Origin: Lytechinus pictus
Taxonomy: Eukaryota
Reading direction: 5' to 3'
Length of the DNA stretch: 64,000 nt
Assembly: GCF_037042905.1 (NCBI RefSeq)
Contig: NC_087250.1
Location: 8,124,001-8,188,000, forward strand
Part shown: positions 59,259-63,525 of the stretch, piece by piece
Numbering within the stretch: the first letter of the stretch is position 1
How the letters are laid out: every line of letters starts with the position of its first letter
Notes under the pieces: generated by a model
The model's input: only the letters and a program-made list of their open reading frames with translations
The model's database searches: none
What the model was told of the DNA's origin: nothing
Made by a program: the position numbers and the translations under genes

Positions 59259-60724
59259 TTATATTTCATTGGTTTGTATGATGTTGTTTTGTGTCTGCAC
59301 ATTTTTCTTATTGCACTGTGTGTTTGCACCGAGACAAGTTCGCTTATGTCTACTGTAATGACTTCCATCGCTAAATGCCTTACCACATTGATCGCATACA
59401 TAGGGCTTCTCACCTGTATGGATTCGTTTATGTTTTGTGAGATGATCTTCACGATTAAATGCCTTACCACACTGATCACATACATAGGGCTTCTCACCTG
59501 TATGGATTCGTTTATGTTTTGTGAGATCATTAGATTGATTAAATGCCTTACCACACTGATCACATACATAGGGCTTCTCACCTGTATGGATTCGTTTATG
59601 TTTTGTGAGATTAGATTCATGATTAAATGCCTTACCACATTGATCACATACATAGGGCTTCTCACCTGTATGGATTCGTTTATGTATTGTGAGATTCTGT
59701 ATTTGATTAAATGCCTTACCACATTGATCACATGCATAGGACTTCTCACCTGTATGGATACGTTTATGTTTTGTGAGATTCTGTTCTTGATTAAATGCCT
59801 TACCACATTGATCGCATACATAAGGCTTCTCGCTTGTATGGATTCGTTTATGTTTTGTGAGATTACGTTCTAGATTAAATGCCTTACCACATTGATCACA
59901 TACATAGGGCTTCTCACCTGTATGGATTCGTTTATGTTTTGTGAGATCATTAGATTGATTAAATGCCTTCCCACATTGATCGCATACATAAGGCTTCTCG
60001 CTTGTATGGATTCGTTTATGTTTTGTGAGATCATTAGATTGATTAAATGCCTTCCCACATTGATCGCATACATAAGGCTTCTCGCTTGTATGGACTCGTT
60101 TATGTTTTGTGAGAGGATCTTCACGATTAAATGCTTTACCACATTGATCACATTCAAAGGGCTTCTCACCTGCATGGATTCGTTTATGTTTTGTGAGATT
60201 ACCTTCTAGATTAAATGCTTTAAAACATTGATCACATACATAGGGCTTCTCACCTGTATGACTTTGTTTATGTTTTGTGGGATTGTCTTCATTAGTACAC
60301 AATATTTCACCAACATGATTTTCTTTACCTTCTGAGATATTATCTTGAAATTCATTACATTGTTTATCAAAAATATCAGCATTCCTATTTGTTTTGATAT
60401 TTTCAATTTTACCTGCTAGGATTTCATGCGGTAGTATATTTTTATCAAAGCGTTTCATCTCAGCTTTACAATAATTTCTGATCTTATAGTTTGACACAGC
60501 ATTGCTACCATAATTTCTTATACCAGTGCTAGTGTTGATCTTCATCACTCTACTGAGAGCAGGTTTTTGTATTTCTCCTTTGATGAACTGTAGAATGTCT
60601 TCCTTTGGTGCGTCTGCTGGGGGGATGACACCACGATGACCATGTTTGTACTTGAGATGCCTTGCCAGGACCAAAGGGATAGCATAGAGTGATCCACAGT
60701 ACTCACATCTATAGACTCCAGAAT
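59259..60724 (-). CDS. PRDM9: Terminal exon of the PRDM9-like gene: post-SET C2H2 finger, spacer, 10 C2H2 fingers and 1 C2HC finger
   Basis: 494-aa ORF with CDQCGKAF-x5[14 protein letters not shown] repeats; acceptor at 60725-26. Confidence 0.93.
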
Positions 60725-63525
60725 CTAAAATAATGAGGGACAATGGGGGGCGGTATAGACAAAGTCAATGAAACAATTACATAAATTTCACTTTTTTTCA
60801 AAGCCTCTATTCTGATAATTCTCCCCCCCCCAAATGCCTGTAATTATTCAAGTTTTATAACTATATGATATGAACATGTATCTCCTAAAATCAGGGTTCC
60901 CAGCTTATCAAGAAAACAAAATTCCCTGATTTTTTTTCCTGATGAAGTTTAGAAATTCCCTGAAAATTATTTAAACCCATTCCCACTTTTGCATGGTTTT
61001 CTAAGTTGTTGCAGTGAATTATTGTAAAAAAAAAACACTAAAAACAACCATACCATAACCAGTCATTCAATGGTTGATGTTTTGATATGCAAAAAATATG
61101 ACAGAGTTTGACTACCATGCTTTTGACTTTGGGGCCAATCAAAATTCCCTGATTTTATCCCTCATTTGAGGCAGTTTTCCCTGATTTGAGGTATTTTTAA
61201 AATAAAATTCCCTGATTTTCCAGGACTTGAAAAGAGTATAATAGTTTTCCCTGATTTCCATGATGGGCTGGGAAACCTGTAAAATTATTATGGTATCAAT
61301 TTTGAATAACCTAGCATTGCTTGTAGATATCAAAGACTAGTATATCGACAAATACCTCAGGCCCGCAAAGACAACAGTTTATATCCGTAAAAGAGGCCAC
61401 ACTGAATGAATATTGCTGAAATGAGATTTTAGTCCTTTCAATTAACTAAATATACCAAAATGAATAGATTAAATTATTTGACTTTCATGTATTTTTTTCA
61501 AAAGTCAATCTATTGATTTCAGTCATGATCTTCATAAGATGTAGACTCATTTTTTTTTCTTAAATAGGACTTACACATCAAACACATACTTCTATTTAGG
61601 ACATATCTTTATGTACATTGTAGGGAAGATTCCAGTTCAATCTAATTTTAAGACAATCAATAAAAAAGACATGGAAAGGATAAAGAAAAAGAACGAGGAG
61701 GAAAGGAAGAATCTTCCAAATATAAATTTTGAGAGGTGCATTCCTGCTGTATGGCAAATATTTGTGAATCAAATACCTGTTTCTACACTGAGTTTATTGA
61801 GCTGTGATGTGATACCGAGATCCTTAGCGTACTGCTCTCCATAGTAGACCAGTAGCTCCCTTCCTGGACAGATCGGTTTGAAGGTACGATAGTAGATCTC
61901 ACCAAGATACTGAAATGCTACAAGGTTCTGTTCACCCTCATTACGTGCACAGTTGATGTATCTCATCCAGTTTCCTGTCAGCTCACTGTTACTGTCAACA
62001 TAGTGGTGGGCTTTGCTTTCTGTACAGATCTACAAAGTAGAAAATTGAAATAGACATTGTAATTGAAACTACCATAGCAACTGAAATAGAGCTTGAACAA
62101 GAAGTTGGGAATGAAAATTGATTTGCAATCGATAGGTAGTCATACTGGCATTTAAACTGTATCTTGAAATTCATATAAGAACAGGAAAGCTTAGGAGAGT
62201 CATCAATTTTTATTCATGGTTTTGTGATAAATAAAAATGTTATGTGGGGAAAATTAAGGTCACATTTAGCTATCTTATTAAAGGGATCATTGCCTTCTGG
62301 GAGCAGCTGATTGAAAAACTCTGAAACTAAAAATGAACCATGCGTATGAGTGATTTTTTTAATGAGAACAAAGGGAAACAATGACTTCAAAACTACCACT
62401 GTTTAAGTAACATCAGTGTTTAGAATCTGGACTGTTTGACCTGGGGCCTATTACATAAAACTAGTTATGATAAAAAACTTATTTCATAAAACAAAAACTT
62501 GCAATAACAGTTATGAAGCTACTGAAATAAAATGTGATTGGCTGAAGACTTGTTATTTTATGGGACCTAGAAGTTTAGAATCAGGAATTTGATTTAAGAC
62601 CAATAAAATCTAGAACAATTTCTAATAGCTTCATGTCAAGTATTGCCTCAGGCATGTTTCTTGACAGAGAAAAAGATCAAAGATAAAATCAATCGTACCT
62701 CCCAGGCATAACCGCTATCATATCCTGTTTCTAGGTCCACAATGTCACCTTCATAAGGGCCAAACCGATATCCTTTAGGAATGAACTTGGTCGCAAAGAC
62801 TCCCTGACCAGCCCCCGGTATCGATGACTGCTTGACCAGTAGACCATCTGGTAGAGTCTTCATTGCTCTGTCCTTACAGCCTTTAGGGATGGGGTTGTCC
62901 TTGATGATGGTGAGGGGATGTTTGGAACACTCACCCTCAAAGACCTCATGACAGTCCTCACAATCTAAAAGAGATTATGTTAGGTATTGAATGATAACAT
63001 TGCAAATAATATCTACTACTGCACGTGTCTCTTTCACTTCTTATCCTACTATTTACTAAAACAATGCTTTCCCTTCTCCTTGTCATTATCTTCTCTGATT
63101 TCTTTTTAGTATCGTCCTTCCTCATTCTTATTCTAAATCTTCTTCTCTTGCTTGTATTCTTTTCTTTATTGTCATGACCCAATCTTCCTTTACTTCTTCT
63201 TCCTCTCTCTCTGTTAAAATCAGAGCAATATATGCTGTACAAAAACAAAGAGTTTCACAAGTGAGAACATCAAAACAAACGGTACAGAATTATCACTCTA
63301 TTCAGAGTCATTGATATACTAGTGATAGCCCATGTAGATTTGTACTTAATTTGTAGGAAAATAGGGGTGTAATCAATTATGGTAATATATCTCCATTATA
63401 TGTTTACTTACAGATGTAATGATCATCATCAGGAACATCGTCTTCTTTGTAGCACTTCCTGGTCACGGATCTTCGAGGATACCTAGATTGTCTAGGCGAT
63501 GGTTGAAATTTTGCTCTTCTCCTTT
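59259..63525 (-). CDS. PRDM9: PRDM9/Meisetz-like histone methyltransferase, 3' four exons (5' part lies beyond the window)
   Basis: Exons 63412-63525 (SSXRD-like RYPRR...[13 protein letters not shown]), 62699-62964 (Zn knuckle YCEDC...C..H and PR/SET FGPYEG), 61777-62029 ([27 protein letters not shown]...ELLVYYG) and 59259-60724 (post-SET finger and array). Phases are consistent. Orthology was not tested phylogenetically. Confidence 0.85.
59330..60245 (-). repeat. 84-bp coding minisatellite (zinc-finger array)
   Basis: Near-identical 84-nt units, including at synonymous sites. Confidence 0.95.
60892..61279. mobile_element. CAG-terminated MITE with TTCCCTGA subterminal repeats, in a PRDM9-like intron
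   Basis: CAGGGTTCCCAGC ... GCTGGGAAACCTG. Confidence 0.65.
61777..62029 (-). CDS. PRDM9: PRDM9-like PR/SET exon (C-half)
   Basis: YVD...[55 protein letters not shown]. Confidence 0.93.
62699..62964 (-). CDS. PRDM9: PRDM9-like Zn-knuckle and PR/SET exon (N-half)
   Basis: [17 protein letters not shown]...[19 protein letters not shown]...FGPYEG...GYAWE. Confidence 0.93.
63412..63525 (-). CDS. PRDM9: PRDM9-like SSXRD exon
   Basis: [24 protein letters not shown] resembles the vertebrate PRDM9 SSXRD (Y.LR.R...YKE...P.DDDYL); phase-1 donor joins the knuckle exon. Confidence 0.85.

Follow-up and report, generated by a model that had tools for sequence, protein, structure and literature searches.

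The window analysed here, 64,000 nucleotides of the sea urchin Lytechinus pictus (assembly GCF_037042905.1, contig NC_087250.1, forward-strand positions 8,124,001 to 8,188,000, with coordinates below counted from its first base), very probably holds the last four exons of a PRDM9 (Prdm7/9) gene that is intact and full-length. The gene is one of at least two full-length paralogues in this species and is called copy A below. Its membership in the PRDM9 family, with the hallmarks of the vertebrate gene, is well supported by comparison of domains, catalytic residues and array. The units of its zinc-finger array are kept uniform except at the residues that read DNA, and these diverge within the array and turn over wholly between sister species. 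Such a gene bears on the question of whether the choice of recombination sites by PRDM9 is older than the vertebrates, and the locus provides both a well-characterised test case and the correction of a misleading database name.

The stop-to-stop frames and the sequence place the gene on the minus strand, with its last four exons between 59259 and 63525. Scripted splicing by coordinates gives an AG acceptor at all four exons and a GT donor at the three internal ones, the frame stays open through 698 codons, and the spliced translation is identical, without a single mismatch, to residues 224-921 of an L. pictus protein of 921 aa recorded by NCBI and UniRef (P0002; such numbers designate the protein models compared). 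An earlier reading of the letters alone, hereafter the sequence-only reading, had announced a PRDM9 gene of an apparent invertebrate deuterostome in this interval. Its limits prove exact, as one falls on the stop codon and the other on the opening base of the SSXRD-like exon, and the knuckle, the PR/SET domain with its tyrosines, the post-SET finger, the SSXRD-like exon and the single-exon array each lie on the minus strand at the positions that it gave. The match to P0002 identifies the animal as an echinoderm. In the last exon a lone post-SET finger is followed by a linker of about 135 residues and a degenerate half-finger, after which come the array and the stop. The record name of P0002, "zinc finger protein 724-like", hides a gene for a PRDM9-type methyltransferase, and the orthologue in L. 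variegatus (P0001) is named PRDM9-like, with a model of 599 aa that begins only at the SSXRD exon.

A PR/SET domain of the PRDM9 type

Assignment to the PRDM9 subfamily is carried by the two middle exons, which are matched by both the PRDM2_PR and the SET models of Pfam and whose Zn knuckle aligns Cys for Cys and His for His with the human and mouse PRDM9 chains. When the knuckle-SET part of P0002 is compared with all chains in the PDB, the three highest-scoring entries are all PRDM9 (4ijd, 167.5 bits; 6nm4, 164.2; 4c1q, 161.5; E 2.3e-46 to 3.6e-48), and the scores outside PRDM9 are 117.6 bits for PRDM11, 95.9 for PRDM14, 85.3 for PRDM1 and 82.2 for PRDM12. Each exon taken alone also ranks PRDM9 first: exon 62699..62964 finds 6nm4, 4ijd and 4c1q at E 2.5e-15 to 9.3e-15 with PRDM11 next at 3.8e-13, and exon 61777..62029 finds PRDM9 at E 1.3e-22 to 4.7e-22 with PRDM14 next at 2.7e-15. 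Among the matches listed for the SET searches (45 and 60), no other PRDM subfamily name occurs, the names being PRDM9/PRDM7-like, generic zinc-finger or uncharacterized. The lone post-SET finger likewise aligns with that of lizard, fish and lamprey PRDM9-like proteins. The grouping of the SET domain with PRDM9, which the sequence-only reading had proposed, is thus upheld by the PDB ranking, whole and per exon, and is a grouping by ranking rather than by a tree with outgroups. PRDM11 or another PRDM is rejected because of the same ranking and because Prdm11 is described as vertebrate-specific in Vervoort et al. 2015 (PMC4760075).

The domain is about 50% identical to the solved PRDM9 chains and keeps the three catalytic tyrosines. 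Those of the FGPY, IYYRT and LVYYG motifs face tyrosines at positions 82, 147 and 163 of 4ijd_A; with a construct start that we take to be residue 195, these would be Y276, Y341 and Y357. Among sea urchins, the protein of exon 61777..62029 is 100% identical to P0001 and P0002, and the Strongylocentrotus purpuratus proteins P0006 and P0007 show 93% identity across the SET exon.

A KRAB-related N-terminus and an SSXRD-like stretch

The sequence-only reading had expected any KRAB exon to lie beyond base 64000, and this agrees with tblastn, in which residues 1-220 of P0002 have no match in the window at E<=1e-5; not one 6-mer of residues 121-222 is encoded in the window between 63526 and 64000. 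In P0002 itself, residues 5-86 align to a lizard PRDM9, P0039, over its residues 171-251 (43% identity, 65 bits, and E 1e-12 computed at a set database size of 2e8), and a lamprey PRDM9-like protein aligns with the same N-terminus at E 8e-8. The lizard segment is the stretch recognised by the Pfam KRAB model, but is itself below threshold, with 15.9 bits against a cut-off of 20.4. Three Lytechinus relatives have homologous N-termini that the same model scores at E 0.002-0.04, and the nearest named ESM-Atlas clusters for residues 1-95, which serve as a lead only, are "KRAB-related" and SSX (0.76-0.79). In our reading of these alignments, the N-terminus of P0002 would be a homologue of the ancestral PRDM9 and SSX KRAB, though one that the curated Pfam model does not recognise.

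The SSXRD-like exon directly precedes the Zn knuckle, which is where vertebrate PRDM9 has its SSXRD, and it agrees at 12 of 27 residues with the Pfam-SSXRD-positive segments of the lizard and lamprey proteins, though at E values of 2.4-7.5. Those lamprey and lizard segments are themselves below the Pfam cut-off, at 16-21 bits against 23. The exon proposed as SSXRD-like is a candidate for that motif by its position, with a residue identity that is not significant at these E values and with no match to the Pfam model, and the check with KRAB and SSXRD profiles that accompanied it has a similarly divided outcome, with an N-terminus that aligns with lizard PRDM9 and a protein that neither profile matches.

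The KRAB-like N-terminus of P0002 also heads SET-less C2H2 zinc-finger proteins (ZNFs), PHD-ZNFs and two THAP-domain proteins of Lytechinus (P0047-P0054, E 2e-29 to 8e-91), which constitute an echinoid family of 'ancestral-KRAB' proteins.

A finger array diversified at its DNA-contacting residues

All 11 fingers, ten canonical units and a terminal H-x3-C finger, are encoded in the last exon, where Tandem Repeats Finder (TRF) counts 11.0 copies of a repeat 84 bp long (89% matches, zero indels) and where Pfam zf-H2C2_2 matches at E 3.9e-102, far beyond chance. The contact positions -1, +2, +3 and +6 hold 0.509 of the diversity of the array (10 of the 11 fingers used), compared with a uniform expectation of 0.14, and per helix position the diversity over the ten canonical units is 0.80 at +2, 0.66 at -1, 0.64 at +3 and 0.54 at +1. 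For the four contact codons pN/pS comes to 2.41, and for the remaining 23 to 0.20; both are proportions without correction, taken over 45 pairs of repeat units that are not independent of one another. In this allele +6 is almost fixed as lysine and position +1 is variable (E/S/I), and hypervariability therefore falls at -1, +1, +2 and +3 rather than at the usual -1, +3 and +6 (59403-60242); the L. variegatus orthologue does vary at +6 (R, T, K).

The contact-diversity share separates the classes of echinoid proteins. It is 0.35-0.72 in nine PRDM9-like arrays of at least five fingers (P0009, with two tandem fingers, was dropped from the comparison), 0.26-0.30 in six SET-less KRAB-like ZNF models of Lytechinus, two of which are isoforms of one gene, and 0.19 in two older KRAB-less SET-ZNF paralogues. 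In vertebrates, the corresponding published ranges are 0.33-1.0 where PRDM9 is full-length and 0.158-0.524 where it is truncated (bioRxiv 10.64898/2026.09.07.749791).

Turnover between species is complete, with one assembly compared per species. Outside the array, 355 of 383 residues (92.7%) are identical between P0002 and its L. variegatus orthologue P0001, and the consensus finger scaffold of the A copies is identical at 23 of 23 positions; the 11 fingers of P0002 and the seven of P0001 have no contact tetrad in common. Copy B repeats the pattern, with 91.6% identity between P0005 of L. pictus and P0003 of L. variegatus, seven against six fingers and again no shared tetrad. The sequence-only reading had described a minisatellite array in a single exon, and the 84-bp repeats agree with that description; the diversity of contact residues and the turnover between species mark the array as fast-evolving.

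Paralogues and their history

Two L. pictus proteins, P0002 and P0005, have the three tyrosines together with a KRAB-like and an RYPRR (SSXRD-like) motif, and their contact-diversity shares are 0.51 and 0.57; P0046, a third model, is missing the C-terminal SET half. The picture of a single specifier gene that the sequence-only reading conveyed therefore gives way to one of at least two full-length paralogues in this species. By motif, KRAB-like sequence is present in nine of the 18 echinoderm SET proteins checked, and the catalytic tyrosines are kept in all full-length copies. In S. purpuratus, P0006 has both KRAB-like and SSXRD-like parts, and several models are partial.

A neighbor-joining (NJ) tree built from 12 echinoid proteins with their arrays left out (200 bootstraps, 400 of 748 columns kept) recovers the A pair at 100%, a B group at 84% and a Lytechinus clade of A and B at 75%. 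Because of this topology, the A/B duplication is placed before the split of the two Lytechinus species, and it probably followed the split from Strongylocentrotus, so that it is apparently specific to Lytechinus. A second NJ tree of 66 of 83 proteins, from which matches aligned over fewer than 140 residues were dropped, is without branch support.

Given this history, copy A could be a redundant or decaying duplicate, or its array an assembly artefact, with no function of its own. Birth and death with truncated copies does occur in the family, as in P0046 and in the several partial S. purpuratus models, but copy A itself has a 698-codon open frame with canonical splice sites, a pN/pS of 0.20 outside the contact codons, and an L. 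variegatus orthologue kept at 93% identity and grouped with it at 100% bootstrap, and the differences between its repeat units are codon-specific rather than random. An explanation of this kind is accordingly very improbable. A pseudogene is rejected on the same grounds of the open frame, the canonical splice sites and the low pN/pS (0.20) away from the contacts.

Candidate role in meiotic recombination

If copy A works as vertebrate PRDM9 does, the protein would bind DNA sequences set by its finger array, nearby nucleosomes would be methylated at H3K4 and H3K36, and the pattern of array evolution would reflect recurrent selection for new binding specificity. That the gene marks hotspots of meiotic double-strand breaks is a tentative proposal, and one that stops short of being probable. 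In its wider form, copy A, alone or with a full-length paralogue, would position the recombination hotspots of sea urchins, the break machinery would be drawn to H3K4me3/H3K36me3 placed by the array, and the array would undergo Red-Queen evolution under the pressure of hotspot erosion; we regard this as a serious possibility with somewhat less than an even chance. The sequence hallmarks that accompany hotspot control in vertebrates are present, namely the putative four-domain architecture of P0002, the tyrosines, the contact diversity, the elevated pN/pS at contact codons and the complete turnover. Two further comparisons point the same way: truncated vertebrate copies do not show rapid array evolution, and the KRAB-less echinoid SET-ZNF paralogues, at 0.19, resemble the SZ-type copies with low diversity shares (bioRxiv 10.64898/2026.09.07.749791). 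That two or more full-length paralogues are concurrently active in a PRDM9-directed hotspot system of sea urchins is a more doubtful suggestion from the same features.

Several points weigh against copy A as a PRDM9 gene of the vertebrate type. Position +6 is lysine in nine of ten fingers of the sequenced allele, unlike the usual hypervariable +6, and the pN/pS contrast carries the pairwise, uncorrected character given above. Pfam KRAB finds no match in P0002, whole or in its first 95 residues, even at E<=10, and Pfam SSXRD is silent on the window exon and on P0002 at the same limit; the KRAB part, which lies outside the window, is a predicted part that comes from the automatic gene model P0002, and the subfamily assignment is by best match. 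The vertebrate pattern of one full copy is absent, which weighs also against a role in hotspots, and the at least two full-length copies of L. pictus and the ten Prdm7/9 genes of S. purpuratus are unlike known hotspot systems. In KRAB-ZNFs, too, arrays evolve fast, and there the causes are different ones. Non-meiotic roles are a further consideration, and somatic ones are possible because a holothurian 'PRDM9' (Ef-PRDM9) is reported to rise in the regenerating gut (PMC6992634).

These last points lead to a different explanation, in which the gene is a PRDM9-family paralogue with a non-meiotic task, as a sequence-specific chromatin regulator aimed for example at transposable elements or in development or regeneration, and conflict with mobile DNA drives the array. 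The presence of the same KRAB-like domain at the head of SET-less ZNF, PHD-ZNF and THAP proteins in Lytechinus is in keeping with it, as are the expression of Ef-PRDM9 in regenerating gut and the expansion of the family in sea urchins (PMC4760075). The SET-less KRAB-like ZNFs, however, do not concentrate diversity at the contact residues (0.26-0.30, against 0.35-0.72 for SET-bearing copies), the catalytic tyrosines are retained in all full-length copies, and the gene identity of the holothurian Ef-PRDM9 is uncertain. Transcripts from germ-line tissue, moreover, are stated for sea-urchin Prdm9, paralogue unspecified, in Oliver et al. 2009 (PMC2779102). A non-meiotic task is on this balance unlikely, though it deserves to be taken into account.

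Neither the gene nor the family is new, since the gene has an annotated record and the family is known in sea urchins. The novelty implied by the sequence-only reading is accordingly overstated, sea-urchin Prdm7/9 being already in print (PMC8835667, PMC2779102, PMC4760075). PMC8835667 credits Birtle & Ponting 2006 with a sea-urchin PRDM9 (Meisetz) orthologue carrying the ancestral KRAB, and Vervoort et al. 2015 with its supplement counts 18 Prdm genes in S. purpuratus, ten of them in Prdm7/9, "an important expansion". Likewise, Thomas et al. 2009 describe the non-finger part as conserved "even in ... echinoderms", and Oliver et al. 2009 describe concerted evolution or positive selection in arrays of Nematostella, Lottia and Capitella. 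Beyond echinoderms, all hallmarks together with ZCWPW1/2, which co-occur with PRDM9 in vertebrates, are described for 28 cnidarians in a preprint that reports multiple full-length copies as unseen in other taxa and one copy with all features in vertebrates, and in whose text echinoderms have zero occurrences (bioRxiv 10.64898/2026.09.07.749791). PMC11212366 mentions PRDM9 only with regard to swordtail fish. Full-text literature searches gave no paper on PRDM9-directed hotspots in echinoderms, in agreement with the view of the sequence-only reading that such control is undemonstrated there; they also gave no published analysis of the hallmarks in echinoids, be it of tyrosines, diversity share or turnover, and nothing usable on ZCWPW1/2 in sea urchins.

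Should copy A prove to specify hotspots, it would belong to the first PRDM9 hotspot system in a non-vertebrate deuterostome, and hotspot control by PRDM9 would predate the vertebrates and tolerate several specifiers at once. L. pictus, a laboratory species, can be bred and gene-edited, and would be a practical animal for the decisive experiments.

Feature coordinates and the remainder of the window

The features of copy A are collected in Table 1.

Table 1. Positions in the window of the exons, motifs and repeats of copy A.
Feature	Coordinates	Strand	Basis or remark
SSXRD-like exon	63412..63525	-	AG/GT borders, exact P0002 match; intron phase 1 on both sides
SSXRD-like core RYPRR...PDDDHY	63416-63484	-	motif in first window exon
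Exon with knuckle and N-terminal PR/SET half	62699..62964	-	Pfam PRDM2_PR E 1.9e-10
Zn knuckle C-x2-C-x7-C-x2-H	62918-62962	-	aligned to PRDM9 chains
Y276-equivalent codon (FGPY)	62755-62753	-	alignment to 4ijd_A
Exon with C-terminal PR/SET half	61777..62029	-	Pfam PRDM2_PR E 2.5e-29
Y341-equivalent codon (IYYRT)	61891-61889	-	alignment to 4ijd_A
Y357-equivalent codon (LVYYG)	61843-61841	-	alignment to 4ijd_A
Last coding exon	59259..60724	-	single open frame of 501 aa; exact P0002 match
Lone post-SET finger C-x2-C-x12-H-x4-H	60642-60707	-	motif
C2H2 finger array	59334..60242	-	10 canonical 28-aa units (60242-59403) and terminal H-x3-C finger
84-bp minisatellite	59372-60292	-	TRF
Stop codon	59261-59259	-	end of last exon

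Nine Lytechinus relatives were used as tblastn queries against the window at E<=1e-5, with the rows inspected for four of them, and those of P0002, P0005, P0052 and P0017 fall within the exons of copy A only. A second copy inside the window is rejected on this basis, since P0005, P0052 and P0017 match nothing but exons of copy A. The longer open frames elsewhere, in 1-59000, are mostly repeat-derived. Two 15-bp minisatellites, of 16 copies at 45449-45693 and 18 at 54441-54706 (92-94% matches), are inverted relative to each other across about 9 kb, the unit of one being the reverse complement of that of the other; they may be the two ends of a mobile element. An 11-bp satellite, CACTGTGAACA, occupies 14722-15955 with about 114 copies and 67% matches, and GC skew is strongly negative (-0.549) at 22001-24000, an interval that includes a C/A-rich 117-bp repeat at 23124-23377.

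Comparison with known systems

The closest likeness is to vertebrate PRDM9, with which the L. pictus gene shares the order of its parts, from a predicted KRAB-related domain through the SSXRD position, Zn knuckle, PR/SET domain and lone finger to a C2H2 array in a single exon, as well as the minisatellite nature of the array, the diversity at contact residues and the turnover between species. It differs in that the Pfam KRAB and SSXRD models are silent, +6 is a near-fixed lysine, +1 is variable and at least two full-length paralogues exist, and in being known here from sequence. The published sea-urchin Prdm7/9 genes (Birtle & Ponting 2006, as credited in PMC8835667; Vervoort et al. 2015) belong to the same family and the same animal clade, and P0006 shares the KRAB-like and SSXRD-like parts; the present gene is distinct as copy A of L. 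pictus, the product of an A/B duplication that is apparently specific to Lytechinus.

Tetrapod KRAB zinc-finger proteins and the echinoid SET-less KRAB-like ZNFs resemble the gene in having an N-terminal KRAB-type domain and a fast-changing C2H2 array in a single exon, and the echinoid proteins have that N-terminal domain in common with it. Unlike them, the L. pictus gene has an apparently catalytic PR/SET domain, and its contact-diversity share is 0.51 rather than 0.26-0.30. The full-length PRDM9 genes of cnidarians are likewise non-vertebrate, with four-domain copies, conserved tyrosines, several full-length paralogues per genome and contact-diversity shares of 0.29-1.0 (bioRxiv 10.64898/2026.09.07.749791), whereas L. 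pictus, in which the same combination now appears, is a deuterostome.

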